From positions 3,622 to 67,621 of the forward strand of contig CAZLLI010000002.1 in the NCBI GenBank assembly GCA_964560355.1: DNA of 64,000 nucleotides, written 5' to 3'. The DNA is from an uncultured bacterium (GTDB lineage Bacteria; Krumholzibacteriota; Krumholzibacteriia; WVZY01; JAKEHA01). A program made the translations under genes and the position numbers. Numbering within the stretch: the stretch's first letter is position 1; each line of letters begins with the position of its first letter. Below, one piece after another: positions 24,294-43,797 of the stretch. The notes below the pieces were generated by a model. The model worked only from the letters and a program-made list of their open reading frames with translations. It was not told the DNA's origin and did no database searches.

Positions 24294-26125
24294 GCCGCCG
24301 CCGGTCGCTTCGACGCAACCTTGCGCTCTTGGTCGTTCAGGATCTTCTTGCGCAGTCGAATCGATTTGGGTGTGACTTCCACCAATTCGTCGTCTTCGAT
24401 GAACTCGAGCGCGAACTCGAGCGTCATCTCGCGCGGGGGAGTGAGCTGGATGGCGTCGTCGGCGCCCGACGAGCGCATGTTGGTGAGCTTCTTCTCCTTG
24501 ATGGCGTTGACGACCAAGTCCGAGCCCTTGTTGTTGACGCCGATGATCATGCCTTCGTACACGGTGTCGCCGGGGTGGATCAGGATCTCGCCGCGTTCCT
24601 CCAGGCTCCATAGCGCGTACGCCACCGCGGTTCCGGGGTGGAGCGCGATCTGGACGCCGTTGTTGCGCTGCGGCATGTCGCCCTTGAACTCCTGGTACTC
24701 GTAGAAATTCTGATACATGACGCCGGTGCCGCGCGTCATGGTGAGAAACTCGCTGCGGAAGCCGATCAAGCCGCGCGTCGCGATCAAGAACTCCATGCGT
24801 ATGGTTCCAACGGCACTCGTCGACATGGACTTCATCTCGCCCTTGCGCTTACCCATGGCCTCGATGACGACACCCTCGAAGCCGGGGTCGACTTCGACCA
24901 CGACTTCCTCCACCGGCTCCATGACCTGCCCGTCGACTTCCTTCAAGATGACGCGCGGGCGCGAGACTTCCATCTCGTAGCCCTCGCGGCGCATGGTCTC
25001 GATCAAGATCGACAGGTGGAGCTCGCCGCGGCCCGACACCTTCAAACGCTCGCCACCGTCGGCGTCTTCCACGCGGATGCCGACGTTGATCATCGCTTCG
25101 TGCTCCAAGCGCTCCCTTATATGTCGCGAGGTCAAGAACCGCCCGCCGTCTTTGCCGGATAGCGGACTCGTGTTGTGCGAGAAGAACATCGAGATGGTCG
25201 GTTCGTCGACCTTGATCAGCGGCAGCGCCTCGGGCCGTTCGGGCGACGCGAGCGTGTCGCCGACGTGGACGTCTTCGATGCCCGCGATGGAGACGATGTC
25301 GCCGGCCAGCGCCGACTGGACTTCGGAGCGCTTGAGACCGGTGTAGCGCAAGATACGCGTGACTTTCGCCCGTTCGGTCGCGTGGTCGCGCTTGATGAGG
25401 ACGACGGGATCCCCGAGCTTGACCGACCCGTGGTAGATGCGCCCGCTCCCGATGCGTCCCATGTACGAGTCGTAGTCGAGCATGGTGACGAGCATCTGGA
25501 ACGGGTGGTCGACTTCGGCAACGGGCGGCAGCACGCGGTGCACGATGGTCTCGAGCAGGGCCTTCATGTCGGTGGCCGGCTCGTCGAGGTCCATGGTGGC
25601 CCAGCCGTTCTTGCCCGACGCGTACACGATGGGGAAGTCGAGCTGCTCGTCGGTCGCGTTGAGCTCGCAGAACAGATCAAAAGTCAAGTCGGCGACTTCG
25701 TGCGGACGCGCGTGCGGGCGGTCGATCTTATTGATGACGACGATGGGCTTCAAGTGCAGCTCGAGCGACTTCTTCAGCACGAACTTGGTCTGCGGCATGG
25801 GGCCGTCGAAGGCGTCCACGAGCAAGAGCACGCCGTCGACCATGCGCAGGATGCGCTCGACTTCGCTCCCGAAGTCCGCGTGCCCGGGCGTGTCGACGAT
25901 ATTGATGGTCAGATCCTTGTAGCGGATCGACGCGTTCTTGGAGAAGATGGTGATGCCGCGCTCCTTCTCCAACGGGTTGGAGTCGAGGATCGTCACCTCG
26001 CCCTCTTTGAAGGCGTGCGCGCCCGTCTGCTTCAACAGCGCGTCGACCAGGGTGGTTTTGCCGTGGTCGACGTGGGCGATGATCGCGATATTGCGGACGT
26101 CTTTGCGTCGTTTCTGGTTGGGCAT
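24290..26125 (-). CDS. typA: Translational GTPase TypA/BipA
   Basis: AHVDHGKTT and DTPGH G-motifs, about 611 aa. The track ORF extends to 28084, but the true start is ATG at 26125 ([16 protein letters not shown]). Confidence 0.92.
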
Positions 26126-26245
26126 ACGATGATTGCGCTTTTTCGCGCGGGCGACGTAATATAGGCCAAACCCGAACCGGCTGCAACGACCGAAATCGCG
26201 GCCGCGAGGCCGCGCAATCGCGGCCGAAAGGAAGTCCGGCCCTCC

Positions 26246-27862
26246 ATGCAAGCCCGACACGTCGTCTCGAAATGGATCGTGCGCGCCCTTTGGGTGTGGT
26301 GCGCGCTGGCCGCGTCCGCGTCGGCCGCCGCCGAGGTCGCCGAACCCGCGGTGGTTCGCTTCCAGAACCGCGAGATCGTGCTCTTGCGCGCGACGCTGGG
26401 ACCGCTCACGCCGCAAGAGCGCGCCGACGCCGCCATGGCGCGGCTCGCCCAGGTCCACGGCAGCGAGTACCGCAGCGACGTCAGCGTCGTCCCGTACGGC
26501 GACTCGCGCGCGCTCATCCTGGGCACTCGCATCGTTGTCGGCATCGCGCCGGGCGACGTCGACGCGAGCGCGGGCGAGACCGTCGACACCATCGCGGAGC
26601 AGGCCGCGGCGAACCTGCGCGAAGCGCTGGCGTCGTGGGGCGAGCAGCGCCGGCCCGAGGTGGTCGTGCGCGGCGTCACCCATGTGCTCATCGCGAGCGT
26701 GCTCGCGCTCGTGCTCCTCGTGGTCGTGAATTGGCTGCGGCGCCGCGTCATGAGCTTGCTGCCGTCGCGCGCCGAGCGCGCGCTCGAGCGGCGCCACGTC
26801 ACCCTGTTCGGGCAAGACGTGCGGGGCATCACCGTCAAAGGGGTTCACTTCCTGATCGGCCTCACCGCGGGCATCGCCGCGCTCGCCGTGGGTTACATGT
26901 GGCTCACGTACAGCCTGCGGCAGTTCCCGCTCACGGAACCGTGGGGCGACGGGCTGGCGGGATTCCTCATCGGCATCGCCACGACCATCGCGCTCGGGAT
27001 CCTGCGCGGCATTCCCGACATGGTGATGGTGGTGCTGGTGCTGGTGGTGACGAAACTGTTCGCGCGCGGCGTCGCGACGCTGTTCGACGCGGTCGAGCAG
27101 GGGCACGTCAAGGTGCGCGGCGTCCACCCCGACACCGCCGACGCGACCCGCCGCATCGTCACCGCATTGGTGTGGGTATTCGGCGTCGCCGTCGCGTATC
27201 CGTTCATCCCCGGTTCCAGCAGCGAGGCGTTCAAGGGCATCAGCGTGCTGGTCGGCCTCATGATCTCGCTGGGGTCGTCGGGCGTCATTAACCAGGCCAT
27301 GAGCGGCATGGTGGTGGTGTTTTCGCGCGCGCTCAAGGCGGGCGAGTACGTGTGCATCGCCGAGTTCGAGGGCACCGTGACCGAAGTGGGCGCGCTGTCG
27401 ACCAAGCTGCGCACGCCGCGCAACGAGGAGATCAACATTCCCAACGCGACGCTGGTGTCGAGCACGACCAAGAACTACTCGCGCCTCGCGCAAGAGCACG
27501 GGCTGGTGGTGTGGGCGACGGCCGGCATCGGTTACGACGCGCCGTGGCGCACCGTGCACAAGCTCTTGATCGGCGCCGCGCTCAAGACGCCGGGTCTGCG
27601 CCACGACCCGCCGCCGTTCGTGCGCCAGGGCGCGCTGTCCGCGTTTTGCGTCGACTACTATGTCAACGCCTTCATCGAGAACCCCGCGGATCGATTCAAG
27701 GTGTTGTCGGACTTGCACGCCAACGTGCAGGACGCGTTCAACGAAGCCGGCCTCCAGATCATGACGCCGGCCTTCGAGAGTCAGCCGTCGGAACCGGTTT
27801 TGGTGCCGAAGTCGAAGTGGAACCTGGGCGATGCGCCCACACCGCAGAGCAAGGCACCATAG
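26246..27862 (+). CDS. Mechanosensitive ion channel (MscS) family protein
   Basis: Signal peptide or first TM, then several TM helices followed by an MscS-like beta domain (GEYVCIAEFEGTVTEVGALSTKLRT). Confidence 0.75.
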   Translation: MQARHVVSKWIVRALWVWCALAASASAAAEVAEPAVVRFQNREIVLLRATLGPLTPQERADAAMARLAQVHGSEYRSDVSVVPYGDSRALILGTRIVVGIAPGDVDASAGETVDTIAEQAAANLREALASWGEQRRPEVVVRGVTHVLIASVLALVLLVVVNWLRRRVMSLLPSRAERALERRHVTLFGQDVRGITVKGVHFLIGLTAGIAALAVGYMWLTYSLRQFPLTEPWGDGLAGFLIGIATTIALGILRGIPDMVMVVLVLVVTKLFARGVATLFDAVEQGHVKVRGVHPDTADATRRIVTALVWVFGVAVAYPFIPGSSSEAFKGISVLVGLMISLGSSGVINQAMSGMVVVFSRALKAGEYVCIAEFEGTVTEVGALSTKLRTPRNEEINIPNATLVSSTTKNYSRLAQEHGLVVWATAGIGYDAPWRTVHKLLIGAALKTPGLRHDPPPFVRQGALSAFCVDYYVNAFIENPADRFKVLSDLHANVQDAFNEAGLQIMTPAFESQPSEPVLVPKSKWNLGDAPTPQSKAP

Positions 27863-27875
27863 AATGGAGGAGCGA

Positions 27876-28493
27876 ATGAAGAGGGCAAGCAAAGTCGTGG
27901 TCGGTATCGTCGCCGCGGCGGCGGTGGGGGCGTGCGGGAACACGCAGGTGCTCAATTCGTGGACCGATTCACAGATGACGCCCGCGCCGGCCAAGCGCAT
28001 CGTGGTGGTGGGGCTCTCCGGCGTCGAAACCACGCGCCGCTTGTTCGAAGACACCTTCAGCCAAGAGCTCAAGAACCGCGGCAACGACGCGGTGCCGGGT
28101 TACACGGTGCTCCCGAAAGGTCTCGAAGCGAATCCGGACTCGGCGCTCGCCGCCATTCGCAAGGCCGGCTTCGACGCGGCGCTGACCGCGCGCTCGATGG
28201 GCGTTCGCACCGAGGAAACGGAGACGGTGGGAACCGCGTACTACATTCCCGACTCCGGCTACTCGACCTGGGGCGGCTACTACGGCGCCGTCTACGGCGA
28301 TATCACCGCCAACACCTACACGCAGCGCTCGGAGAAAGCCATGGTCGAGACCAACCTCTACCAAACGGCGAACGCCAAGCTGGTGTGGAGCGCGCGCTCG
28401 GAAACGACGAGTACCGGCAAGCTCACCGAGGGCATGCGCGACTACGCGCGCACGGTGGTGGGCGAGCTCGGAAAGAGCGGCTTCATCAAGTGA
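27876..28493 (+). CDS. DUF4136-like lipoprotein
   Basis: GGAGG RBS 6 nt upstream of the ATG. Signal peptide with lipobox (AVGAC). Confidence 0.7.
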
Positions 28494-28509: not shown

Positions 28510-30120
28510 ATGATCGGTTACCTGGCGCGGAAGGTCCGACGCCACCGCGCACGGCGAACGTTTCGCGAGTACGGCTTCGACGTAAAGCGCTTCGCGCTCG
28601 CGCGCGACGGCGACGTCGAGTACGCGCAGTGGCAGCACCCCTTCGAGAAACCGAAGACGATCGTGCAGGACGACGTCGACGGGCTGCGGCGCTTCATCCG
28701 CGCGGGCGACACCGCCATCGACGTGGGCGCGCACACCGGCGACACCACGGTGCCGATGGCGCTCGCGTGCGGCCCCGACGGCGTCGTGGTGGCGTTCGAG
28801 CCCAACCCGCACGTGTTCAAGGTGCTCGAGGAAAACGCGCGCCTCAACCCCGACAAGACTCACATCGTCGCGCTCAATTTCGCGGCCACCGAAGACGACG
28901 GCGACTTCCAGTTCCACTACTGGGACGCGTCGTTCGGAAACGGCGGCTACCTCTCGCGCCTTCGCAACCAGCGCCACGGCCACCGCTATCCGCTGCGCGT
29001 GAAGGGGCGCAACCTCGAGCGCTACCTGCGCACGAACTTCGCCGACCGCCTCGCGCGCCTCACGTTCCTCAAGACCGACTGCGAGGGCTACGACAAGGAT
29101 GTGCTGCGCTCGTTGCGCGGGGTGTTGCGGGAGTTCCGCCCCGTCGTCGTGTGCGAAGTGCACAAGAAGCTCGACCACGCCGAGCGTCATGAGCTCTTCG
29201 ACGTGCTGAAGGACGCCGGCTACGTCCTCCACACGTACCAAGGCGGCGCGCACCCGGTGGGCGACGCCCTCGCGCGCGACGACCTCGCGAAGTTTCCGCG
29301 CCTCGACGTGATCGCGTTCCCCGAGGAGAGGGGAGCCGGCGAGACCCGCGGGGACGCGGGACGCCAACCGCTCCCGTCGACCGCGTCCACGCCGTTCGTC
29401 GAGCGGCGCGCGACGCCGATCGGCCGCGCGCAGCGCGTGCTCAAGGTCGCGGGGTGGATCTTCGTGGCGTGGATCGTGCTCACGGTCGGGCCCGTGATCG
29501 CGCTGCGGTGGGTCGACCCGCCGACCTCGGCCTTCATGGTGCAGCGCCGCATCGAGGGGCTCGTGCACCCGTCGCACCGCGTCGCCATCCAGTACCACTG
29601 GGTCGACATGGACCGCGTGTCGAAGAACACGCGCCTCGCCATGATCGCGGCCGAAGACCAGCGCTTCACCGAACACGACGGCTTCGACTTCGACGCGATC
29701 GAGAAGGCGCGCGAGCACAACCGCCGGCGCGGGCGCTTGCGCGGCGCGAGCACCATCTCGCAGCAGGTGGCGAAGAACTTGTTCCTGTGGCCCGGTCGCA
29801 GCTGGTTTCGCAAGGGCGTCGAGGCGGGTTATACCATCCTCATCGAAGCGTTGTGGCCCAAGAAGCGCGTGCTCGAGGTGTACCTCAACATCGCGGAGTT
29901 CGGCGACGGCGTCTACGGCGTCGACGCGGCGTCGCGGCGCTTCTTCCACAAGTCGCCCGCGCGCCTGGGCCGGCATGAGAGCGCGCTGCTCGCGGCCGTG
30001 CTGCCCAACCCGCGCCGCTTCAAGGTCGACAAGCCGTCGAAGTACGTCGAGCGGCGCGCGTGGTGGATCGAGCGCCAGATGATTCGACTGGGCCCGGCCG
30101 CGCTGGAGCCGCTGTCGTGA
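28510..30120 (+). CDS. Fusion protein: FkbM-family methyltransferase (N-terminal about 270 aa) + monofunctional peptidoglycan glycosyltransferase MtgA (GT51, C-terminal about 250 aa)
   Basis: FkbM motifs [18 protein letters not shown] helix follows, then the MtgA hallmarks [30 protein letters not shown] and NIAEFG. One uninterrupted ORF. Confidence 0.8.
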
Positions 30121-30548
30121 CCACGACGCGCGCACTCGCCTACGGTTGGGCGTCTCCCACCACGGCGGTCGGCTTGGTGCTGGTGGCGGCGGCGCTGGCG
30201 ACGGGCGCGCGCGCGTCCGTGGTCGACGGCGTGGTGGAGGCGCACGGCGGATTGCTCGACGCGATGCTGCGTCGCTTCGTGCCGTTGCGCGGCGGGGCCA
30301 GCGCGATGACGCTCGGGCACGTCGTGGTGGGGCGCGATCCGGGATCGCTCGATCGCACGCGCGCGCACGAGCGCGCGCACGTGCGCCAGGCGGAACGGTG
30401 GGGTCCGTTCTTCCTCCCCGCGTACGTGGCGTCGTCGCTCGCGGTCGCGCTGCGCGGCGGGCACTACTATCGCGACAATCGTTTCGAGCGCGAGGCGGTC
30501 GCGGTGGCGTCGCAGGGTGCTCGGGCACCGGAAGGAGTCCGCTCGTGA
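30117..30548 (+). CDS. Hypothetical protein with HExxH (HERAH) motif, putative mini metallo-hydrolase
   Basis: GTG start overlapping the upstream TGA. 143 aa with a hydrophobic N-terminus. In frame with track ORF 30060-30548. Confidence 0.5.
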
Positions 30549-30889
30549 AGGTCACGCTGGTCACCGTTCTCCTGCTCACCGCGTCGAACGTCTTCATGAC
30601 CTTCGCGTGGTACGGACACTTGAAGCACATGCACGCGAAGCCGTGGTTCGTAGCGGCGCTGGTGAGCTGGGGAATCGCGTTCTTCGAGTACATGATCCAG
30701 GTTCCGGCCAACCGCATCGGGTTCCGGGTGATGGATCTCGCGCAGCTCAAGATTCTGCAGGAAGTGGTGACGCTCTCCGTGTTCATCCCGTTCGCGGTGT
30801 TCTACATGCGGGAGCGCCCGCGCCTCGACTATTTGTGGGCGGCGATGTGCCTCTTGGGAGCCGTCTACTTCATGTTCCGGCGCCCCTAG
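30545..30889 (+). CDS. DMT-superfamily small membrane protein (DUF486-like)
   Basis: GTG start overlapping the upstream stop. 114 aa with 4 TM helices and a YGHLKH motif. Confidence 0.6.
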   Translation: MKVTLVTVLLLTASNVFMTFAWYGHLKHMHAKPWFVAALVSWGIAFFEYMIQVPANRIGFRVMDLAQLKILQEVVTLSVFIPFAVFYMRERPRLDYLWAAMCLLGAVYFMFRRP

Positions 30890-31035
30890 GGCCTCTCGAT
30901 TTTGCTTTGACCGCGGCGTCGAACTGGCCTACGATACGTGGGTTACAGGACCGATGGGGGACGGTCCGTGGGCCATCACGCACCCTTCTCGCGCGCCCGG
31001 CGCCTGGCCGGTCCGCCTCGCCGCAAGCGGCCACC

Positions 31036-33651
31036 ATGGTTCGGTTTCTCCCCAGCCTTCGTGTTGTGGCGTTGATCGCCTTCGTCGCGGCGACCGCGCC
31101 GGTCGCGCGCGCCGGCGTCGACCCCGACTCGCTGTACCTCGCGCGCCATCCCACCCTCTTCTTCGGCCCCGGCGACGTGCCCGCGCTGCGCGCGCGCGTC
31201 GAAGCCCCCGGCGCCCCCGCCGACGCCTTCGCCTTCATCCGCGACGCCGTCCACGACACCTATCCGGCGGTGCCGATCGATTCGCTGATCGACAACGACT
31301 TCGCGCAGGAGCCGATCATGAATCTCGGGCTGGTCGGTTTCTTGAGCGACCCCGTCGACGACGACGCGCTCGCGCTCGGGCGCGCGCTCACCCTCCACAT
31401 CGTGCGCACCTGGGACGTCGACACCGACGCCTTCGGGTCGTCGCTGCGCCTGCGCCAGATGGCGATCGGGTACGACCTCTACTTCGCGGGTGCGACACCG
31501 CTCGAGCGCGCCGAGGTGCGCGCCGAAGTCGCGAGCTACATTTCGTACATCGTTTCCAGCATGGCGTACGACATCTGGCTGCACCGCCCGTACGCGAGCA
31601 ACAAGAGCGCGATGATCGCCGCCGCGCTGGGCCTGGCCGCAATCTCGTTCCGCGACGAGATCGCCCCCACGCTGACCGCGGCCGCGTTCGCGCGCTGCAC
31701 GGCGCTCTACGACGTGTGGCGCTCAACCTACATCGCGGACGACGGGTGCTATCGCGAAGGCGCGCTGTACGGCGCGTGGAGCTTCCGCAACCTGATTTAC
31801 TACTTCCAGGCGCGCACGCGCTTCGACGGGACCTCGTTCTCCAACGACTGGGCGGTGCGCGAGTTCGAGCGTTGGTACGCGTACGAGCTCGACCCGCGCG
31901 GCGGCGCGCGCTTGAACAACATCCAGGACCTGACCGACTACTACCTGCCGCTCGCGCGCCACACCACGTACTTGGAGTGGGCGATGTCGGAGTGGGGAAG
32001 CGGACTCGCGCGCTATATCTGGGACCGCGCGTCGGGGCCGCTCGGCGTCGACCTAGGCGACGAGAACGACAAGGCGGCGACGGTGCTGTGGCATGAGGAC
32101 GTGCCGTCGATCAACCCGGGGACAATCCTCCCCGAGAGCGCGCTGTGGAAGGGACGCGGGCTGTATTACTACCGCTCGGGCTGGGCGGACGGAGCCTCGT
32201 CGGACGACATCTCGCTCAGCTTCTACTCGGGCGAATTTCGCGGCGGCCACGCCCAGGAGGACCAGAATCAATTCACGCTGACCGCCTTCGGCGAGAAGCT
32301 CGTGATCGACCACGGCGCCGGCGGCACGGCGCGCCAGAGCGAAGCGCACAACATCGTGCGCATCGACCTCGCGGGACAGTTCAACGCGGGCGCGTCGATC
32401 GGCACCGACGGCCGCATCGCGCAGTCGATGCTGACCGGCTTCGCGGACTATCTGTGCGGCGACGCCACCGCCGCGTACACCACGCACAGCCCCTACAACA
32501 ACCCCGGCGTGCCCTACCCGGCGACGGATTGGTCGTGGGGTTACGGCGGCGCGAATCCGGTCGAGCGCGCGCTGCGGCGCATGGTGGTCGTGCACGGCGC
32601 GGGCTTTCCGACCTATTTCATCGTGCAGGACGACATTCTCAAGGACGGTGCCGTGCACCGCTACGACTGGTGCGCGCACTTCCCGGATTCGTCGACCATC
32701 GATGCGTCGGCGCCCAAGGGCCCCATCGCGGTCGCCGTGGGCGGGGCGCGCCTCGATTTGCACACGCTGTTTCCGCCCAAGCCAGCGCTTGCGGGCGTGA
32801 TCCGGACCACGTTCGATAACCAGGCCGAGGATCCCGACTCGAGGCTTTTGATGCTGACGACCTTCGCGATCAATCCGAAGTTCGCGCTGCTGCTAATCCC
32901 GCGGCGCGCGGGCGACGCCGCTACGGTGGTGCAATCGTCGACCTTCCCGGCCGGCACCATGAGCGTGGTGCGCTCGCCGTCGGGCGCGCTCGACGTGGTG
33001 TGGGTGCGCGGCAATCACGTCGGGCCGGTGGCGCCGCCGCCCGCCGGCGACGACGGCGAGGGGTGCGGCCCGGTCTCGATCGACGCCGAGCTCGCGGTGG
33101 TGCGAATGGGGGCGGCGGGCGTCGAGCGCTATCTCGCGGTCGACGCGCGCTCCATCGCGTGCGCGTCCGGCGACGTCGTCACGATTCTCGACGGCACCGC
33201 GACCTTCGCCTTCGACGGTACGCGCGTCACCATCGACCGGCCCGACGCCGAGTTTCGCATCCTCGCCGACGGTGTGAGCGAAGTCGTGTGCGACGGCGCG
33301 GTGGTCCCGACCGGCCTCGACGGCCGCTACTTGGTGCGCGTCTCCGCCACCGCGGTGACGACACCCGCGCGCGGCGACGGGCTGGGGCTGCGCGCGTATC
33401 CGAATCCGTTCAACCCGTCGGTGCGCATCCGCTTCGCCACCGCGGCGCGCGCGCACGTCGATGCGCGCGTCTACGACGCCGCCGGTCGCTTCGTGGCGAC
33501 GCTCGCGTCGGGCGCGATGGCGGGCGGTGAACACTCGATGGAGTGGAACGGACGCGACCACCGCGGCCGTGAAGCGGCGAGCGGCGTGTATTTCCTGCGC
33601 GTGCGCGCGGGGTCGGCGAGCGAATCGTTGAAACTGGTGCTGGTGCGTTAA
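31036..33651 (+). CDS. Heparinase II/III-like (alginate lyase / polysaccharide lyase) protein with C-terminal T9SS-type sorting domain
   Basis: Signal peptide, alpha/alpha toroid N-terminal region and a heparinase II/III-like middle region. The C-terminus AYPNPFNPSVRIRF..VYDAAGRFV..GVYFLRVRAG is a canonical FlgD-Ig/Por-secretion tail. Confidence 0.8.
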   Translation: MVRFLPSLRVVALIAFVAATAPVARAGVDPDSLYLARHPTLFFGPGDVPALRARVEAPGAPADAFAFIRDAVHDTYPAVPIDSLIDNDFAQEPIMNLGLVGFLSDPVDDDALALGRALTLHIVRTWDVDTDAFGSSLRLRQMAIGYDLYFAGATPLERAEVRAEVASYISYIVSSMAYDIWLHRPYASNKSAMIAAALGLAAISFRDEIAPTLTAAAFARCTALYDVWRSTYIADDGCYREGALYGAWSFRNLIYYFQARTRFDGTSFSNDWAVREFERWYAYELDPRGGARLNNIQDLTDYYLPLARHTTYLEWAMSEWGSGLARYIWDRASGPLGVDLGDENDKAATVLWHEDVPSINPGTILPESALWKGRGLYYYRSGWADGASSDDISLSFYSGEFRGGHAQEDQNQFTLTAFGEKLVIDHGAGGTARQSEAHNIVRIDLAGQFNAGASIGTDGRIAQSMLTGFADYLCGDATAAYTTHSPYNNPGVPYPATDWSWGYGGANPVERALRRMVVVHGAGFPTYFIVQDDILKDGAVHRYDWCAHFPDSSTIDASAPKGPIAVAVGGARLDLHTLFPPKPALAGVIRTTFDNQAEDPDSRLLMLTTFAINPKFALLLIPRRAGDAATVVQSSTFPAGTMSVVRSPSGALDVVWVRGNHVGPVAPPPAGDDGEGCGPVSIDAELAVVRMGAAGVERYLAVDARSIACASGDVVTILDGTATFAFDGTRVTIDRPDAEFRILADGVSEVVCDGAVVPTGLDGRYLVRVSATAVTTPARGDGLGLRAYPNPFNPSVRIRFATAARAHVDARVYDAAGRFVATLASGAMAGGEHSMEWNGRDHRGREAASGVYFLRVRAGSASESLKLVLVR

Positions 33652-34898
33652 GCGGCGGCTGTGTTCGACGCGCCCGTGACGACGGGGGTCAAGCGCGCGA
33701 ACGCGGTGCGCAGCGAACGCTCGACCGCGTCCGCCGACTCTCCGCGCGCGAAGATGAATCCGGTGTAGAGAAATCCTTCCGGCAGCGGCTCCATCGACTG
33801 GCCCGGCCGCGCCGCCACGATCACTTCTTCGATCCCGGGCACGTCGCACGCCGCCGGCACGCCGCGCATCTCTTCGAAGCGCCCGCGGCGCGGAGACTGC
33901 ATCATCCACACGCCCGCCGCGCGCGCGTCGAGCGGCGGAACTTCTCCCAACATTCCCAATGCGTCGGCCAGGATGACGTCTTCCAGTGCGCGCCCGTCGG
34001 CGAAGCGAACCACGCGCGAGCACAAGCCGCCGATGGAGCGCGCGTGGACCTCGATCGGCATCACACGCTCGTCGTCGCCGCGTATCTCGACGTGGAAGGG
34101 GCCGTGGGTGAGTCCCACCGCGCGCACCGCGTCTTCGGTCAGGCGCACGATGCGGTCCACCGCGCGCGCGCCGAGGCGCGACGGCGTCACGTACATGGTC
34201 TCGGGGAAGTAGGGGCCTTCGAGCGGGTCGGGTTTGTCGAACACCGCGAATACGTGCGCACGTCCCTTCGCCATGATGCCTTCCACCGCGACTTCCCACC
34301 CCGGCACATACGATTCGACCAGGAGGTGGTCGGCGTTTTCATTCTCCGCCGGCGCGCTCGACGCCACCAGCGCCGCCACGCGCGCGAACGCATCGACGAA
34401 CTGGCGCGCGTCGTCGACGCGGATGACGCCGCGGCTCGCCGCCATCGCGAGCGGCTTCACCACCGCCGGGTACGCGATCGCGTGCGCCGCGTCGCGAAAC
34501 TCGTCGACCGCCACCAGCCGGTAGTCGGGCTGTGCGATGCCGGCCGCGCGCATGCATTCGCGCGCGCGAAACTTGTCGCGCGCCGCGCGCACCGCGCCCG
34601 CGGGATTGTGCGGGAGTCCTAGCGCTTCCGCGATCACCGCCGCCGCCAGCGTCGCCTGGTCGTCGACGGCCACCACGGCGTGGATCGGGTGCGCACGCGC
34701 GAGCGCGTACGCGCGCGCGGCGGCGTCGGCCGGGCGTGAGAAGTCGAAGGTGGGCAAGTCGACCGGGTGCAAGTGCGAGAGCGAGTTGGGAGCTTCCGAC
34801 GCGATGCTCAAGTCGACCGGCAAACGCTGCGCGGCGCGGATGAACGCCTCGGCGCGGTAGGTCGACGTGGGGACGAGCAGGAGCAGGCGGGGCTTCAT
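33648..34898 (-). CDS. ATP-grasp domain protein (carboxylate-amine/thiol ligase family)
   Basis: 416 aa with ATP-grasp core motifs (AYPAVVKP, LVESYVPGWEVAVEG). Last gene of a three-gene minus-strand operon. Confidence 0.75.
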   Translation of the reverse strand: MKPRLLLLVPTSTYRAEAFIRAAQRLPVDLSIASEAPNSLSHLHPVDLPTFDFSRPADAAARAYALARAHPIHAVVAVDDQATLAAAVIAEALGLPHNPAGAVRAARDKFRARECMRAAGIAQPDYRLVAVDEFRDAAHAIAYPAVVKPLAMAASRGVIRVDDARQFVDAFARVAALVASSAPAENENADHLLVESYVPGWEVAVEGIMAKGRAHVFAVFDKPDPLEGPYFPETMYVTPSRLGARAVDRIVRLTEDAVRAVGLTHGPFHVEIRGDDERVMPIEVHARSIGGLCSRVVRFADGRALEDVILADALGMLGEVPPLDARAAGVWMMQSPRRGRFEEMRGVPAACDVPGIEEVIVAARPGQSMEPLPEGFLYTGFIFARGESADAVERSLRTAFARLTPVVTGASNTAAA

Positions 34899-34908
34899 CG
34901 CGCGGCGT

Positions 34909-35541
34909 CTACTTCGACGACGGCGCGTAGTACGGGTTGCGGCCGGCGGCGTGGTCGGTGGTGTCCATGATCGCGCCGACCTCGGGGACTTCCTCGCGAA
35001 TGGTGCGCTCGACGCCGTACTTCAGCGTCACGCTGACCATCCCGCAACCCTGGCAGCCGCCGCCGAATTCGAGGAACACCGTGTTGTTGGTGACGTCGAG
35101 CAGGTGCACGACGCCGCCGTGGCTCGCGACCGCGGGATTGATGATGGTGTCGAGCACTTGCTGCACGCGGCGCTTCACTTCGGCCGGCGCGAGCAGGGTC
35201 TCGGTGACGGCGTCGGAGATCGCGGTTCCGGAAGCGATCGCGTCGCGAATCGCCGCCGCGACGCGCGGCACCTTCGCCTCCCAGTCGGCGTCGCCCAGGA
35301 GCGTCACGCGCACGGCGTCGTGCATCACCAACACGTCCGCCACGCCCTCGATCGCGAAGAGGCGGTCGACCAAGGGCGACCCCTGCGACTGCGACGCGTC
35401 GGCGAAATAGGCCGAGTGGTTCGCGTACACGGGCTCGCTCGCCGTGAAGGTGCACTGCTCGGGGTGCACCATCGACGGCGTCGCGGTGATGCGAACCGTG
35501 CGCCCTTGCGGGAGTTCGAAATTGAGGGTCAGTTCATCCAT
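34909..35541 (-). CDS. Nfu-type Fe-S cluster carrier (Nfu_N scaffold domain + NifU-like CxxC domain)
   Basis: 210 aa. The C-terminal domain carries GGGCQGCG, the canonical NifU/Nfu cluster-binding motif. Confidence 0.8.
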   Translation of the reverse strand: MDELTLNFELPQGRTVRITATPSMVHPEQCTFTASEPVYANHSAYFADASQSQGSPLVDRLFAIEGVADVLVMHDAVRVTLLGDADWEAKVPRVAAAIRDAIASGTAISDAVTETLLAPAEVKRRVQQVLDTIINPAVASHGGVVHLLDVTNNTVFLEFGGGCQGCGMVSVTLKYGVERTIREEVPEVGAIMDTTDHAAGRNPYYAPSSK

Positions 35542-35655
35542 AGTACCGCGATCATAGGCAACGCGCGCGCGTCACGCAAGCGCGCCGTCGCCGCCTTCGT
35601 CGTGGTGCCGGCTCCACGCGTGGAGAGAGCCCAACTGGCTCTCGGTGGGCTCCGC

Positions 35656-37068
35656 TCAGCAAAACCAATCCTCCGTGAGGCGCGGCGCCGCGCCGCGCCG
35701 GCGCGGGTGCGCGGTTCCGGTGCGCGCAGGATCGGCGGCGGCGCGCACGCGCGCGAAGGCGTCGAAGGCGTCGAGCCCGTCGGCGGAGGCGGCCGCGGCC
35801 GCGCGCGCCACCGAGCGCTGGAGCTCGTCCATCGACGGGTCGGGGTGCGTCCAGCGGTGCGAGAGCGTCTCCGCGTCGAAGGCACCCAGGTGCGGGCGCA
35901 TCTCGGCGGCGGAAAGGAGCAGGGATCCGTCCGGCACCAGCAATCGAATCGAGTACTGCACGGCGTCGACGTGGTCGGTCAACCCTTCGCCGTCCACGAT
36001 GTCGAAGAGCTCCGCGTAGCTCGCGCGCGTCTCCCACGGCGTGAACGGCACGAAGGTCGGGCGCAGCGCGAGCCCGCGCGCGCGGAAGCGCGCGGCCACG
36101 GCGAGCGCATCGGCGCGCGTGTGCCCCTTGCGCAATGCCGCGAGCACGTCGTCGTTGAACGACTCCGCCGCCGACACCACGAAGAGGTTGCCGAGCGCCT
36201 GCAGCTCGCCCACCACGTCGTCGTAGCGAAGCAGGTGCTCGATCTTGGCGGTGTAGTCGAAGGTGAGCCCCGCGAAGCGGCGCGACAGCTCGCGCGCGAC
36301 GCGCAGCGCGTGGGTGGGTCCGTTCAGAAAGTCCGCGTCGGCGAAGGTGACGTGGCGCGCGCCGCGCGCGAACAGGGTCGCGACGTCGTCCATCACGCGC
36401 TCGAGCGGGAGCGCGTAGAACGCACCGTGGTACGCGGGTGGGAGCGGGCAGTGGCGGCACGCGTGCTTGCACCCGCGCGTCGCCGCCACGTGGGCGACGT
36501 CGACGCGGGTTTCGCCGTGCACGAGCTTGGCGTAGCGCTCGCGGTGGAAAAGGGCGTCGCGCGCGGGCGTGAGGTCGAGCGCGCGCCCGGATGAGCGAAG
36601 CGCGTCGGACGCGCGCGACTCGGGAGCGACGTCGCGCGGGCGCGCCGACCCCGATGCGCGCGCGTCGGCCACGCGACGCACGAGCGCGAGCAAGGGTGCT
36701 TCGAACTCCGCGCCCAGCACGGAATCGGCGAGGCCGCCGCGCAGGCGCGCTTCGTTCAACCCGGCGTACAACCCGAAGAAGCACACGTGCGCGTCGGGGT
36801 TGACGCGGCGCACGATGGTCGCGACCTGCACACCCAGTCGCAGCGCGGTGTGCATGGGCGCCGAGATGGCGACGAGGTCGGCGCGCGCGAGGGCGTCGAC
36901 GTCGATAGGCGACACCGCGAGGTCGAGCAGGCGCGCGGAGAAGCCGGCGCGCGCGAGCACGCCCGCGGGGACGACGAGGCCGAGCGGCTCCTGCCCCATC
37001 TCGTAGCACGAGACCAGGAGGACGCGATCGCTTGGCGAAGGAGCGGGGTCGGTGGCGCGCGCCTGCAT
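35656..37068 (-). CDS. B12-binding domain radical SAM protein
   Basis: N-terminal cobalamin-binding Rossmann-like segment (VLLVSCYEMGQEP). CxxxCxxC radical SAM motif (GCKHACRHC). 470 aa. Confidence 0.8.
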   Translation of the reverse strand: MQARATDPAPSPSDRVLLVSCYEMGQEPLGLVVPAGVLARAGFSARLLDLAVSPIDVDALARADLVAISAPMHTALRLGVQVATIVRRVNPDAHVCFFGLYAGLNEARLRGGLADSVLGAEFEAPLLALVRRVADARASGSARPRDVAPESRASDALRSSGRALDLTPARDALFHRERYAKLVHGETRVDVAHVAATRGCKHACRHCPLPPAYHGAFYALPLERVMDDVATLFARGARHVTFADADFLNGPTHALRVARELSRRFAGLTFDYTAKIEHLLRYDDVVGELQALGNLFVVSAAESFNDDVLAALRKGHTRADALAVAARFRARGLALRPTFVPFTPWETRASYAELFDIVDGEGLTDHVDAVQYSIRLLVPDGSLLLSAAEMRPHLGAFDAETLSHRWTHPDPSMDELQRSVARAAAAASADGLDAFDAFARVRAAADPARTGTAHPRRRGAAPRLTEDWFC

Positions 37069-37160
37069 GCCGCGAGTATAAGGAAGGGGCGGTCACGACG
37101 CCACGGCGACGGCGCGGGCAATCGTGTATACTGCGCCCGGGCCGACACGCGGAGGTAACG

Positions 37161-39209
37161 ATGGCCAATCAGGATTCGCACCGCATGCGGCCGGCGAGAT
37201 GGAAGCCCGGGTTCTCGCTGGACCGGATCGAGTCACCCCACGACGCCACCCCGGGCGCTTCCGACGCCGACCGCGTCGTGCGCGGAAGGGCGCTCATCTT
37301 CTGGGACCCCAAGCGCCCCGGTCAAAAGCTCGACGCCATCGACACCGACCAGATCACGCCCGCCAAGGACTGCGTGTCGGAGAGCCTCGACGCCCTCGAC
37401 AAGAATTGGAAGGAAGGCGCGTTTCGCTTTCTGATGCCGGACTTTCGCGCGCGCGTCCACCGCGGCGAAACCTTCCTGGTGGCGGGCGACCGCTTCGCGA
37501 TCGGGTCGTCGCGCGAGATGAGTCCCGCGGGGCTGCGCGCCATCGCCGAGGAAGCGGGCCTCGAGATGGTGATCGTGTGCGGCCACAACGTCGGCGATAT
37601 CTTTCGCCGCAACTCGCTCAACCTCGGGTTGGAAGTGGTCCAAAACGCGGAGGCGGTCGCGGACGCGCAGGACGGCGACGAGTTCTCGTACCTTCCCGCC
37701 ACGCGCACGCTGACCAACGAGACGCGCAAGAAGACCTACCAACCCGTGCCACTCTCCGCCAAAGAAGACGAGATTCGGCGTTCGGGTGGAATCTTCGACA
37801 TCGGGCGGCGCGAGTTCCGCGAGTCGCTCGCGCGCACGCCGGAGGCCGCGTGGCCCGACGAAGCGACCGCGCGCGGGCTCACCACCACCGAGCAGATCGC
37901 GTGGGCGCACCGCGTCGACAAGGACGCGCGCGTCGAGCCCGGGCGCACGCTGCGCGTGTTCGCGGACCTCTTGCCCGCGTCCGACGGCACCGCGCCCTTT
38001 GCCATTCATACCTTCAATCAGATCGCGCGCGGCGCCATCTACCCGCGCCAGGCCGCCATCGCGAACGACCACTTCGTGTTCACGGGCGCCGACGCCGACG
38101 ACAAGCAGACGCGCATCGGGCGCGCGTTCGCGGAGCAGAACGAGCTCGGCAAGCCGTATTACGCCACTCCTGGCGACGGCATCTTCCATTTCTATTTTCC
38201 GGAGCAAGGTCTCATCTATCCGGGGCAGGTCGTGCCCGGCGCGGACTCGCACTCGCGCGCGTACGGCGCGTACGGTGCCGTCGGCATCGGGGTGGGCTCG
38301 ACTACGCTCGGCTTCGGGTGGGCGCTCGGCTACGTGTACTTCACGCCCGCGAAGGCGCGCCGCGTCGTGTTCACCGGAAAACTGCAGCCGTGGGTGACGG
38401 GCAAGGACGTCGTCTTGAAGCTCCTCGAGCGCTGGGGCGCGAAGCAATCGCAGGGCATGTCGGTCGAATTGGTCGACGCCAATCTCCAGCTGCCGATCGC
38501 GTACCGCAACACCATCGCGAACATGATGGCGGAAGCGGAGGCGCAAAACGGCATCTTCGCGGCCGACGACGTCACCGAAGCGTGGTACCGGTCGAAGGGG
38601 TTCGGCGCGCTGCCGTACCCGCGCCTCGCGCCGGGCGCCGACGCGCGCTACGAGATCGACGAGACCCTCGACCTATCGAGCGTGGTGCCGATGGTCGCGA
38701 AGCCGTTCAGCCCCGGTAACGCGTTCCCCGCCGACGAAGTGGCGCGCGAGCGCATCTCGTTCGACAAGGCGTTCATCGGTTCGTGTACCAACGGCAGCTA
38801 CGACGACCTTCTGCAGGCGGCGCTGGTGGTCAAGCGCGCGCGCGAAGCCGGCTTCACGCGGGCCACCAAGCCGTTCATCGTGTTTCCGGGGTCGGGCGGA
38901 GTGAAGACGCTCATCGAGCGTCCCGACGCGCGCCTGGGCGGCGAGTCGGTCGCCGACGTGCTGCGCTCCGTGGGCGCGCAGATTCGCCAGTCGTGGTGCG
39001 GGCCGTGCTTCGGGCAAGGACCCGACGCGCTCAAGAAGGGCGAGCGCGCGATCACGTCGTTCAATCGCAATTGGCAGAACCGCATGGGTGTGGGGGGCGA
39101 AGGCTATCTCGCGAGCCCGTCGGTGGTGGCGGCGTCGGTGCTGGCGGGATACATGGCGCCCCCGAGCGAGCTCGGCATCGTGTGGAACGCGGAAGCCTTC
39201 GCGCTCTAG
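37161..39209 (+). CDS. Aconitase-family Fe-S hydro-lyase with permuted domain order (swivel/LeuD-like domain N-terminal, catalytic LeuC-like domains C-terminal)
   Basis: GGAGG RBS. N-terminal FWDP..IDTDQI swivel signature. The C-terminal region carries ADSHS, IGSCTNGS and CGPCFG cluster-ligand motifs. Confidence 0.75.
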   Translation: MANQDSHRMRPARWKPGFSLDRIESPHDATPGASDADRVVRGRALIFWDPKRPGQKLDAIDTDQITPAKDCVSESLDALDKNWKEGAFRFLMPDFRARVHRGETFLVAGDRFAIGSSREMSPAGLRAIAEEAGLEMVIVCGHNVGDIFRRNSLNLGLEVVQNAEAVADAQDGDEFSYLPATRTLTNETRKKTYQPVPLSAKEDEIRRSGGIFDIGRREFRESLARTPEAAWPDEATARGLTTTEQIAWAHRVDKDARVEPGRTLRVFADLLPASDGTAPFAIHTFNQIARGAIYPRQAAIANDHFVFTGADADDKQTRIGRAFAEQNELGKPYYATPGDGIFHFYFPEQGLIYPGQVVPGADSHSRAYGAYGAVGIGVGSTTLGFGWALGYVYFTPAKARRVVFTGKLQPWVTGKDVVLKLLERWGAKQSQGMSVELVDANLQLPIAYRNTIANMMAEAEAQNGIFAADDVTEAWYRSKGFGALPYPRLAPGADARYEIDETLDLSSVVPMVAKPFSPGNAFPADEVARERISFDKAFIGSCTNGSYDDLLQAALVVKRAREAGFTRATKPFIVFPGSGGVKTLIERPDARLGGESVADVLRSVGAQIRQSWCGPCFGQGPDALKKGERAITSFNRNWQNRMGVGGEGYLASPSVVAASVLAGYMAPPSELGIVWNAEAFAL

Positions 39210-39835
39210 CGCGATAGTTGCGACGCGAGGTCGACGAGTGCTTTCGCGACCGCGTACACGGCGTCGCGCTCTTTCTCGTCGATCAAGTTGCCGGCGGCGT
39301 CGAACGCGGTGGCGGCTTTCGACAACGCCTTCTGCTGCGGGATGACGAGCATGCCGCAAATCGTCAAGGTCCAGCGCGCCTGAAATAGCCCCCGCATTCC
39401 GCCCAGCGCGCCGTTCGACGCCGACGTGAGCGCGACCGGCTTGTTGCGCGCCCACGCGAGCCCGTCTTTGGCGGACGGCGTGGGACGCGACGCCCAGTCG
39501 ATGGTGTTCTTGAACAGCGGCGTCATGCTCCCGTTGTACTCGGGGAGTGAAAACAAGATGCCGTCGTGCGCCGCGAACACGTCCTTGAGCGCGAGCGCGT
39601 TGGCGGGGAGTCCGTCCCACTTCTCGAGATCGGCGTCGTAGAGGGGTAGCGGATAGTCGCGCAGGTCGAGGCGCGTGACGCGCGCGCCCGCGGCTTCGAG
39701 CCCGTCGCCGGCGACGCGCACCAAGCGGCGGTTGAAGGATCCTTCGCGCAGGCTGCACGCGAAGGCGACGATGCGCGGTGATGGATTCACGAACGCAGTA
39801 TCCAGCACTCGCGCGGGTTCGTCAAATGGTCGCAC
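39206..39835 (-). CDS. NAD(P)H-dependent FMN reductase family protein
   Basis: Flavodoxin-like fold ([23 protein letters not shown]). Start may be an internal GTG near 39793. Confidence 0.75.
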
Positions 39836-39852
39836 CCAATGGAGGAGTCTTC

Positions 39853-40821
39853 GTGGAGTATCGGCGGTTAGGCAGATCGGGGCTCAAGATTTCCGCGCTC
39901 TCGCTCGGTGCATGGGTGACGTACGGGTCGCAGGTGGGCGAAGACGTCGCGTACGAATGTATGACCGAGGCCTACGAGGGCGGCGTCAACTTCTTCGACA
40001 ACGCGGAAGCGTACGCATCCGGCAAAGCGGAAGAGGTGATGGGCAACGTCATCCGGCGCGCGGGGTGGAAGCGCTCGGACCTCGTGATCTCGACCAAGCT
40101 GTTCTGGGGCGGGAAGGGTCCCAACGACAAGGGGCTCTCGCGCAAGCGCATCGTCGAAGGCACCGAGCGCTCGCTCGCGCGCCTCAAGCTCGACTACGTC
40201 GACCTCTTGTTCTGCCACCGCCCCGACCCCGAGACCCCGATCGAAGAAACCGTGCGCGCGATGAACCACGTCATCGCGCAGGGGAAGGCGCTCTATTGGG
40301 GCACGAGCGAGTGGAGCGCCGACGAGATCGCGGAGGCGGCCGCGATCGCGAAGCGCGAACACATCATTGGACCTGCGATGGAGCAGCCGCAGTACCACAT
40401 GTTCCACCGCGACCGCGTCGAGAAGGAGTACGCGCGCCTCTACGACGAGATCGGCCTCGGCACCACGATTTGGAGCCCGCTCGCGAGCGGGCTCTTGACG
40501 GGGAAGTACGACCACGGACCGATTCGGGGGACGCGCGCGGAGCTGCCCGGGATGGAGTGGCTGCGCGAAGAACTGGTGGGGGCGTCGGCGCGTCCCAAGA
40601 TCGAAAAGGTGAAGAAGCTCAAGCCCGTCGCCGACCGCCTCGGGTGCACGCGTGCGCAGCTCGCGCTCGCGTGGTGCCTCAAGAACCCGCGCGTGAGCTC
40701 CGTCATTACGGGGGCGACACGGCGCGAGCAGGTGAAGGAGAATCTGGGGGCGCTCTCGGTAGTGCCGAAGCTCACGTCCGACGTGATGCGCGACATCGAT
40801 CGCGTCTTGGCCGGCGGCTGA
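39853..40821 (+). CDS. Aldo/keto reductase (Kv-beta-like subfamily)
   Basis: GGAGGA RBS 7 nt upstream of a GTG start ([14 protein letters not shown]). AKR motifs [13 protein letters not shown] and ALYWGTSEW. Confidence 0.85.
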
Positions 40822-40840
40822 TTCCCGAAAAAACGGACAC

Positions 40841-40878
40841 AAAAAAAGATCCCGGGCGAAACCCGGGATCTTCTTAAG
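40841..40878. terminator. Rho-independent terminator (AAAAAAA-GATCCCGGG-cgaaa-CCCGGGATC-TTCTTAAG), potentially bidirectional
   Basis: Perfect 9-bp GC-rich stem flanked by an A-run upstream and a T-rich tract downstream, 20 nt after the AKR stop. Confidence 0.7.
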
Positions 40879-41044
40879 CGCTCAGGAACTGAACGCCATA
40901 GTGCAGGGACCGCTACGATATCACTTGCCCTCCGGGGGTTCAAGCCCCTTTTTGTCTTGCCCCGTTATCCCGTTGTGGTAAAATAGTTTCGCCGTTCAGT
41001 CGGCGGTCCTCGCGGGACTTTCGGACCCGCTCCGAAAGCGTTGT

Positions 41045-41073
41045 TTGACACTCCAAAAAGGGCCGTGTTAATT
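41045..41073 (+). promoter_or_regulatory. Putative sigma-70-like promoter (TTGACA-N17-TTAATT) for sucA
   Basis: A perfect -35 hexamer and an AT-rich -10-like element in a GC-rich region, about 100 nt upstream of the sucA start. Confidence 0.4.
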
Positions 41074-41176
41074 AACAGCGGCGCGCGAGTGCGCGCGCAC
41101 CTGGGGCCGCAACGCGGCGTCGTGCGACACGAGACAGTCGCGGACGCTCGCCGGCAAGAACTGTGAGTATCACTGC

Positions 41177-43672
<2,496 letters not shown>

Positions 43673-43797
43673 TTTCGCGGACGTCCCCGTTCCTCCCGGC
43701 AAAGTTTTCCTCCTCGCCCCGCGTGCGGCGGGGGGGCATTTGTGTACTCTTCTTGCTCACTTGATTGCACTTACTCCGCTCGGAGACGCGGGGAAAC

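Follow-up and report, generated by a model that had tools for sequence, protein, structure and literature searches.

A stretch of 64,000 nucleotides from an uncultured bacterium of the Krumholzibacteriota (GenBank assembly GCA_964560355.1, contig CAZLLI010000002.1, positions 3,622 to 67,621, hereafter the window) carries a three-gene operon on its minus strand, in the gene order radical S-adenosylmethionine (SAM) enzyme, nfu, ATP-grasp. The calls of open reading frames (ORFs) gave a radical SAM ORF of 470 aa up to a TGA (37068..35656, ORF call and translation), an Nfu-type Fe-S cluster carrier of 210 aa (34909..35541; Nfu_N and NifU C-terminal domain, CxxC at C163/C166) and an ATP-grasp protein of the L-amino-acid-ligase (Lal) type of 416 aa (33648..34898; ATP-grasp_4, LAL_C2 and ATPgrasp_N), with apparent gaps of 114 nt and then 10 nt between them. 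These three co-directional ORFs had been listed in an initial annotation of the window and were reproduced exactly, and Pfam agreed with the domains that it had named for the three proteins (B12-binding/Radical_SAM; Nfu_N/NifU; ATP-grasp_4/LAL_C2/ATPgrasp_N). The window is about 67% GC and many of its long ORFs are spurious, unlike these three, all of which have a coding signature (GC content at third codon positions, GC3, 0.88-0.92; at second positions, GC2, 0.45-0.52).

Selenocysteine codon and hairpin of the radical SAM gene

The radical SAM ORF ends in ...PRLTEDWFC before the TGA at 35658-35656, 3' of which the same frame reads AEPTESQLGSLHAWSRHHDEGGDGALA (AEPTESQLGSL…) and then meets a second TGA at 35574-35572. 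The GC3 of this C-terminal extension is 0.89. Among the 120 closest database proteins, 102 stop exactly at ...WFC, their entries being truncated at the UGA, and 17 go on as ...WFCCAEPTExQ[F/L].... When the codon after WFC was read in 77 genome loci, it was TGA in 58 and TGC or TGT in 19, never TAA or TAG, and A/S/T-E-P followed in frame past codon 471 in nearly every locus read that far. Alternation of TGA with Cys codons is the classical selenocysteine (Sec)/Cys signature, and therefore the true coding sequence of this CUAEP-tail radical SAM selenoprotein is 37068..35572 on the minus strand (stop TGA 35574-35572), 498 aa long and made up of residues 1-470, Sec471 (U471) and a 27-residue tail. 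The Sec codon UGA (35656..35658, minus strand) lies immediately 3' of the invariant Cys470, at the aligned column in which Sec and Cys alternate. This comparative evidence shows that the gene encodes a selenoprotein, the predicted product of decoding the UGA as Sec471. The 114 nt that the initial annotation took for a gap are not intergenic, because they hold radical SAM coding sequence and the hairpin described below, and the real spacer between the radical SAM gene and nfu is 30 nt; the 10-nt spacer between nfu and the ATP-grasp gene stands as annotated.

Inside the tail coding sequence lies a hairpin of the selenocysteine insertion sequence (SECIS) type (35625..35643, minus strand), which was detected by comparative folding, covariation and a covariance model. 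In the window it reads GAGAGCC-AGUUG-GGCUCUC, with a 7-bp stem whose 5' arm begins 12 nt past the UGA and a conserved GU in the apical loop. In per-locus folds, 47 of 57 Sec loci had a stem of at least 6 bp at this place; the 5' arms came in 35 different sequences, and the apical loop was AGUU or AGUUN in most Sec loci. In 19 Cys loci, by contrast, the median best stem was 4 bp (Mann-Whitney p = 4e-8). In an alignment of 55 sequences, 79% of cells were paired, and compensatory double changes were counted in 50 cells vs 17.5 in shuffles (0/500 reached the observed value), with every slid control lower. A covariance model made from the Sec loci had one strong match in the window (56 bits); it scored the Sec loci at 37-59 bits and the Cys loci at 11-31 bits, a contrast that is indicative only since the Sec loci are its training set. 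Together, these comparisons show a SECIS hairpin within the tail coding sequence that is predicted to help Sec insertion at the UGA. The hairpin is visible only by comparison: the single-sequence fold of the gap was uninformative in its GC-rich context (z = -0.44), and Rfam had no match at gathering thresholds across the window and only noise in the gap (E of 3.9 or worse).

A second covariance-model match at 19009-19052 (+), with 14 bits and starting TGAGCGAAGCCGACC, was rejected as chance because its frame has stops and an arginine-rich junk translation. Two Cys-form (TGT) loci, L026:11384-11431 and L042:3957-4004, have kept a partial SECIS-like hairpin of 28-31 bits, which may indicate a recent Sec-to-Cys conversion. 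A CUAEP member is also encoded on megaplasmid NC_011961.1 of the thermophile Thermomicrobium roseum DSM 5159 (WP_012643191.1, L084:7935-9440); its annotated end is the UGA, past which the frame reads AEPLEDPSGPVASQVRMVDQPLR, and its gene is flanked by a pyridoxal-phosphate-dependent aminotransferase gene and an MFS transporter gene, with no Nfu or ATP-grasp gene. This cultured Sec-form host and the natural Cys forms of Nitrospirota make the family tractable.

The CUAEP family and its partner genes

Placement of the radical SAM protein by profile searches, which the initial annotation had proposed, assigned it to NF040546, "CUAEP/CCAEP-tail radical SAM (seleno)protein", and to none of the B12-dependent radical SAM families. 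The equivalog cut-off of 500 bits was passed with 528.9 bits, residues 16-470 matching model positions 1-457 of 468, with U471 and the tail as the remaining model positions. The NF040546 family has been described as an uncharacterised CU-motif selenoprotein (Haft 2022, bioRxiv 10.1101/2022.07.06.499078). The window protein, whose best homologs are from Krumholzibacteria, is a member of this family without any difference at the protein level, and has its CxxxCxxC core, its PRLTE-WFC-U-AEPT tail and its Sec/Cys alternation. Therefore the three genes, which had been called an orphan and uncharacterised cassette, are uncharacterised as to the function of the cassette, but the radical SAM protein is no orphan. 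In the literature searched we found no characterised CUAEP member and no description of the SECIS hairpin, of the Nfu/IscU/DUF169 and L-amino-acid-ligase partners or of the Cys21 signature. With the family itself already catalogued, what is new here, as judged from that literature, is the SECIS, the Cys21 signature, the conserved and reciprocal link of the radical SAM gene with an Fe-S carrier and an L-amino-acid ligase, and an arsenic-free context.

The Cys and Sec residues of the window protein are C21, C96, C200, C204, C207, C470 and U471. C200, C204 and C207 form the CxxxCxxC radical SAM cluster motif (36448..36471, minus strand) and are invariant in both family alignments (A1 and A5), and Cys21, in the motif SCYE (codon at 37006..37008, minus strand), is invariant in A1 and kept in no fewer than 90% of the rows of A5. 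Six Cys/Sec positions are invariant in the family, three of them outside the radical SAM core, and we infer that Cys21 is a candidate third ligand beside Cys470/Sec471. Pfam matched Radical_SAM with 50.4 bits (residues 197-342) and B12-binding with 35.5 bits against a cut-off of 32.1, the latter match being weak or absent in many homologs. An AlphaFold model was taken from the closest Cys-form homolog (P0018, 65% identical to the window protein; pLDDT, the per-residue confidence score, 90.5), and its top Foldseek match was AprD4 (6fd2, E = 1e-16, TM 0.63-0.66), with TsrM, MgmA, OxsB, MiaB, TokK and CysS among the further matches. The architecture consists of a degenerate Rossmann-like N-terminal domain, a CxxxCxxC [4Fe-4S]/SAM site and a flexible tail with Cys470-Sec471.

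In the CUAEP family, tblastn confirmed at least 596 loci, spread over several hundred species representatives. We retrieved 80 genome loci with the family profile and analysed their neighbourhoods by tblastn and ORF clustering, with 47 loci having at least 3 kb on both sides as a stricter set. The loci represent at least 10 phyla, among them Krumholzibacteria, Methylomirabilota/Rokubacteria, Nitrospirota, Acidobacteriota, Planctomycetota, Gemmatimonadota, Poribacteria, Chloroflexota/Thermomicrobia and Ignavibacteriales. The initial annotation had taken co-occurrence in relatives as the point that would separate a system from chance adjacency, and the genes do co-occur. Near the radical SAM gene, an Nfu-like gene was present in 39-43 of the 80 loci, an ATP-grasp gene in 39, DUF169 in 16 (Nitrospirota and Planctomycetota), an Atg22-like MFS transporter in 8 (all Blastocatellia) and a NifU_N/IscU-like protein in 5. 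Among the 47 well-flanked loci, 28 had Nfu or IscU, 26 had ATP-grasp, 21 had both Nfu/IscU and ATP-grasp, and 10 had DUF169. The commonest arrangement was co-directional radical SAM-Nfu-ATP-grasp (18 of the 28 loci having both partners), and 25 of the 26 loci with an ATP-grasp gene also had Nfu, IscU or DUF169. The link also holds when it is followed from the ligase: among the 49 ATP-grasp homologs closest to that of the window (at least 53% identical; contigs of at least 10 kb), at least 31 were on the same contig as one of the top 120 radical SAM homologs, and three further ATP-grasp homologs that were looked up all lay within a radical SAM-Nfu-ATP-grasp trio. The clade of the window ATP-grasp occurs essentially only beside CUAEP radical SAM genes, and comparison of neighbourhoods indicates that the trio is a conserved cassette whose function is uncharacterised. 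No further recurrent ORF of at least 70 aa was found in the 80 loci beyond Nfu, IscU, DUF169, ATP-grasp and MFS (shorter ORFs were not screened).

DUF169 (COG2043) occupies the slot of Nfu, between or beside the radical SAM and ATP-grasp genes, in loci L005, L009, L026, L029, L042, L062, L067, L069 (11480-12220), L070, L073, L075 and L076, all from Nitrospirota or Planctomycetota, and this position hints that DUF169 could stand in functionally for an Fe-S or metal carrier. In a single case (L088:11008-11706), merB, encoding organomercurial lyase, is located 3.7 kb downstream of a radical SAM-Nfu-ATP-grasp trio with RND efflux genes ahead of it.

The Nfu protein of the window matched Nfu_N (45 bits) and NifU (PF01106, 76.1 bits) in Pfam, and among solved structures those of plant NFU and human NFU1 are the closest to it. 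It is not a member of the E. coli NfuA equivalog (99.2 bits vs a cut-off of 269), which has a degenerate A-type domain at its N-terminus, and has the Nfu_N domain there that mitochondrial NFU1 also carries. A GxCxxC motif was present in 38 of 45 Nfu genes adjoining the radical SAM gene. Carriers of the NFU1/NfuA type serve radical SAM enzymes, and here such a carrier is the dedicated neighbour of one of them; in some phyla an IscU-like or DUF169 protein takes its place.

The ATP-grasp protein matched ATP-grasp_4 (107.9 bits), LAL_C2 (51.1 bits) and ATPgrasp_N (28.6 bits), the architecture common to the Lal enzymes BL00235 (3VOT), BacD/YwfE, DdaF, RizA and TabS. Of the solved structures, that of the L-amino-acid ligase BL00235 is nearest to it (E = 1e-30, residues 33-394), with BacD next, and it scored below the cut-offs of all named equivalogs, such as BacD (62 bits vs 850) and DdaF (43 vs 840). 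Several Lals couple a non-proteinogenic amino acid that is toxic with a residue that acts as its carrier, as in bacilysin and dapdiamide. Unlike the window ATP-grasp, none of the characterised Lals has been reported with a radical SAM selenoprotein as genomic partner. Because the ATP-grasp is of the L-amino-acid-ligase type, a small-molecule substrate, namely an amino acid, is favoured, as the initial annotation had already proposed on other grounds. The products of BL00235 include Met-Gly and Met-Met (PMC6920838), with which a methionine-like 2-amino-4-X-butanoate substrate is compatible, but by which it is unproven.

Relation to ArsL and the chemistry it suggests

The second-best NCBIfam model for the radical SAM protein was ArsL (NF040542), with 264.5 bits, and the next best reached only 47 bits. 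The window protein has 32% identity over residues 15-416, the N-terminal domain included, with an ArsL homolog from a Bacillus cereus plasmid that bears the annotation RCCLKC-tail radical SAM protein; in the alignment, C470-U471 falls opposite the CC of the RCCLKC tail. The conserved Cys/Sec count is six in both ArsL and the CUAEP family, with Sec in place of the second tail Cys of ArsL; the CUAEP family differs by an insertion of about 45 residues ahead of the tail and by Cys21, which is Asn in the B. cereus ArsL. Their contexts differ as well, ArsL being found with ArsM and ArsQ, and the window protein instead with Nfu and an amino-acid ligase. Previous studies reported that ArsL cuts SAM at the C-gamma-S bond, giving methylthioadenosine and a 3-amino-3-carboxypropyl (ACP) radical, and forms a C-As bond (bioRxiv 10.1101/2024.02.01.577332; bioRxiv 10.64898/2026.04.29.721666; PMC13598754), that As(III) is bound by the three tail cysteines (bioRxiv 10.64898/2026.04.29.721666; PMC13598754), and that the enzyme was reconstituted in vitro with Fe-S, SAM and reductant only (bioRxiv 10.1101/2024.02.01.577332). 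On B. cereus AH820 plasmid pAH820_272, a Lal-like ATP-grasp (L085:1441-2664), 22% identical to the window ATP-grasp, has an ArsR gene as its neighbour and lies 3.3 kb upstream of ArsL; a MIP channel, a GNAT gene and ACR3/arsC/arsD/arsA lie downstream.

By analogy with this sister family, we propose that reductive cleavage of the C-gamma-S bond of SAM by the CUAEP enzyme would give methylthioadenosine and an ACP radical or an organometallic equivalent. The enzyme would attach the ACP group to a soft heteroatom X, for which Cys470 and Sec471, and probably also Cys21, would serve as ligands. An amino acid of the type 2-amino-4-(X)-butanoate would result, with selenium, sulfur, antimony, tellurium and mercury-type atoms as candidates for X. 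The Lal-type ATP-grasp would then couple this amino acid, which resembles methionine, to a second one to form a dipeptide, and Nfu would load or repair the [4Fe-4S] cluster of the radical SAM enzyme. An amino-acid product is supported by the LAL_C2 domain, the likeness to BL00235, the Atg22-like MFS flanks and the Lal-like ATP-grasp at the B. cereus ArsL locus. We put this ArsL-like scheme of ACP transfer, dipeptide ligation and cluster supply or repair forward tentatively, its chance of being right falling a little short of even.

Several observations weigh against the ArsL-like scheme. The window protein missed the ArsL cut-off of 450 bits with its 264.5 bits. The third tail Cys of ArsL is Pro in the CUAEP family, leaving two chalcogen ligands vs three, and the tail is modelled with a pLDDT of only 54-74. 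The bond of SAM that is cleaved is not deducible from sequence. No homologs of ArsR, ACR3, ArsC, ArsD, ArsN-type GNAT or MIP were found within 10 kb of the radical SAM gene in the 80 loci (ArsM was not queried); the substrate of ArsL is therefore not supported, arsenic was rejected as the default substrate, and this ars-gene-free context argues against arsenic as the physiological X. ArsL loci have no dedicated Nfu, so the Nfu/IscU link is unexplained by the ArsL analogy and may indicate a sacrificial auxiliary cluster. Moreover, 12 of the 47 well-flanked loci had none of Nfu/IscU, ATP-grasp and DUF169, and one close relative has kept radical SAM-Nfu but has no ATP-grasp, which indicates that the ligase step is not obligatory; the 12 partner-less loci had no neighbour in common (citrate synthase, OEP, nitroreductase, ferredoxin, MFS and a peptidase were among their neighbours). 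Finally, selA, selB, selC (tRNA-Sec) and selD were not found within the 64-kb window, nor was Sec machinery or tRNA-Sec found adjoining the radical SAM gene in 60 loci.

Among the alternatives, the one that survives best is canonical 5'-deoxyadenosyl chemistry on a small molecule, in which Cys470-Sec471 would serve as a redox or H-atom-donating arm; we judge it unlikely, while taking it seriously. The CxxxCxxC motif is the canonical one, the best structural match, AprD4, is a canonical 5'-deoxyadenosyl radical dehydratase, and the ArsL family cut-off is not reached. In addition, a vicinal Cys-Sec pair on a flexible, low-confidence tail resembles a redox arm such as the C-terminal Gly-Cys-Sec-Gly of thioredoxin reductase. 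However, the likeness to ArsL spans the whole protein and is far stronger than that to any canonical family (264.5 vs at most 47 bits), the tails of ArsL and the CUAEP family are homologous in position, and the amino-acid ligase would be left without a role. AprD4 itself, a radical SAM diol dehydratase with a cobalamin-free Rossmann-like domain, has its two-domain architecture in common with the window protein at an identity of only 20%, and performs its chemistry on an aminoglycoside without a Cys/Sec tail.

Marginally more improbable is a scheme following the logic of LipA, BioB and MiaB, in which Cys21, Cys470 and Sec471 would ligate a sacrificial second [4Fe-4S] cluster for insertion of S or Se. 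For example, an ACP radical and a cluster sulfide would give homocysteine or a homocysteine-like thiol, and Nfu, IscU or DUF169 would rebuild the cluster at each turnover. Of all readings this one best explains the carrier association, given that an Fe-S carrier adjoins the radical SAM gene in 28 of the 47 loci and that three carrier types (Nfu, NifU_N/IscU and DUF169) take one slot; in E. coli, NfuA restores the auxiliary cluster of lipoyl synthase, the number of invariant non-core Cys/Sec residues is exactly three, and the methylthiotransferases MiaB and RimO, whose auxiliary cluster lies in the N-terminal domain, are among the structural or sequence matches. Yet the alignment with MiaB/RimO from a profile search of PDB covers the radical SAM core only, and at most one of the three N-terminal cysteines of the methylthiotransferase type could be present. 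The homologous tail of ArsL binds As(III) as substrate and not a cluster, we know of no precedent for a vicinal Cys-Sec pair as a cluster ligand, and no carrier is nearby in 12 of the 47 loci.

The initial annotation had called the radical SAM enzyme cobalamin-dependent, and this is probably wrong. A class B radical SAM methyltransferase or its kin acting on a small molecule, with Nfu and ATP-grasp as helpers, could account for the B12-binding match in Pfam and for TsrM, MgmA, OxsB, TokK and CysS among the Foldseek matches. That Pfam match is marginal, however, and the NCBIfam models of B12-dependent radical SAM enzymes (HpnR, PhpK, TsrM-type, QCMT, ladderane and others) gave at most 47 bits against cut-offs of 360-650, the best being HpnR with 47 bits vs 650 and all others at 45 or below. 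Cobalamin biosynthesis or transport genes were not recurrent in the 80 loci. A 2026 review places AprD4 and ArsL homologs within the similarity network of B12-dependent radical SAM enzymes, with a Rossmann-like domain and no cobalamin binding (PMC12931638), and the reconstitution of ArsL needed no cobalamin either. Because the top structural match and the nearest relative are both reported to be cobalamin-free, the "B12-dependent" label is most likely an artefact of the domain fold, and we consider a cobalamin enzyme very unlikely.

Slightly less probable again is a cassette for ribosomally synthesized and post-translationally modified peptides (RiPPs) or for protein modification, whose substrate would be a peptide encoded elsewhere or a protein C-terminus. 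The radical SAM gene is frequently alone, RimK and the microviridin ligases are ATP-grasp enzymes acting on peptides, and many radical SAM enzymes mature RiPPs. Against this, the RiPP radical SAM model reached 17 bits vs a cut-off of 282 and no SPASM or RRE domain was detected with Pfam, the ATP-grasp has a Lal-specific C-terminal domain with free-amino-acid ligases as its closest solved relatives, and the screen of the 80 loci for ORFs of at least 70 aa returned no recurrent candidate for a precursor. The initial annotation saw no precursor-peptide ORF, which is borne out by the actual spacers, at 30 nt and 10 nt too short for a small ORF. Chance adjacency of a housekeeping Nfu and an unrelated ligase, to which the flanks conserved within the close lineage only (aconitase-family, aldo-keto reductase and 2-oxoglutarate dehydrogenase E1 genes) and the 12 partner-less loci might point, is effectively refuted by the co-occurrence counts, since the partners recur, with gene order and strand mostly kept, across Krumholzibacteria, Methylomirabilota/Rokubacteria, Nitrospirota, Acidobacteriota, Planctomycetota, Ignavibacteriales and others, and the ATP-grasp clade is essentially confined to radical SAM contigs.

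Returning to the ArsL-like scheme, ArsL is among the very few radical SAM enzymes with a canonical motif that have been shown to make an ACP radical and not a 5'-deoxyadenosyl radical, and a large CUAEP sister family, with its Cys-Sec arm, its own Fe-S carrier and its dipeptide ligase, suggests that ACP-radical chemistry extends beyond arsenic. Further, we speculate that the CUAEP selenoenzyme may be a widespread second type of ArsL-like ACP-radical enzyme, forming a C-heteroatom bond to a non-arsenic element (Se, Te, Sb, Hg or cluster-derived S) and making, with the Fe-S carrier and the ligase, new organo-element amino acids or dipeptides. This wider proposal is doubtful; if it were true, the products would be antimetabolites or a detoxification product of soil, groundwater, sponge-associated and thermophilic bacteria. 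Naming the captured atom would add a further branch to the organo-element natural products and assign the rare Cys-Sec motif a defined catalytic role.

Neighbouring genes in the window

The radical SAM-nfu-ATP-grasp genes form a discrete unit because a convergent gene lies on one side, encoding a secreted protein of 1044 aa (30517-33651, +), and a divergent gene on the other, of the aconitase family (about 37158-39209, +). The start of the latter is placed near 37158 since the proteins of relatives have 682-683 aa. The divergent intergenic region 5' of the radical SAM gene (37069..37157) is presumed to hold the operon promoter; neither a sigma-70 consensus match nor an internal terminator was found in 33300-37400, and within the unit its own strand has no site resembling either.

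The block at 37032-45489 contains the aconitase-family gene (with its Aconitase_C segment N-terminal) and genes for an FMN reductase, an aldo-keto reductase, 2-oxoglutarate dehydrogenase E1 and a HAMP-GGDEF protein. It is syntenic in close relatives but not across other phyla, which reflects synteny of the lineage and not a part of the system. The aconitase-family, FMN reductase, aldo-keto reductase and secreted-protein genes, present in only 2, 1, 3 and 3 of the 80 loci, respectively, were rejected as components because they are conserved in the close lineage only.

At 20429-21088 (+), 13 kb from the operon and with no established link to it, lies a fusion of an ArsR/HTH_5-type regulator with a MetOD1 output domain. 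The 1264-aa ORF at 24290-28084 (-) is over-extended: only its C-terminal part of about 600 residues is a BipA/TypA GTPase, and a mechanosensitive-channel (MscS) gene lies opposite the rest (26246-27862, +). A single ORF of 536 aa at 28510-30120 (+) combines FkbM-type methyltransferase and transglycosylase domains, which are encoded by two separate adjacent genes in relatives (L083, L086 and L087), so the window ORF reflects either a gene fusion or an overlooked stop or start.

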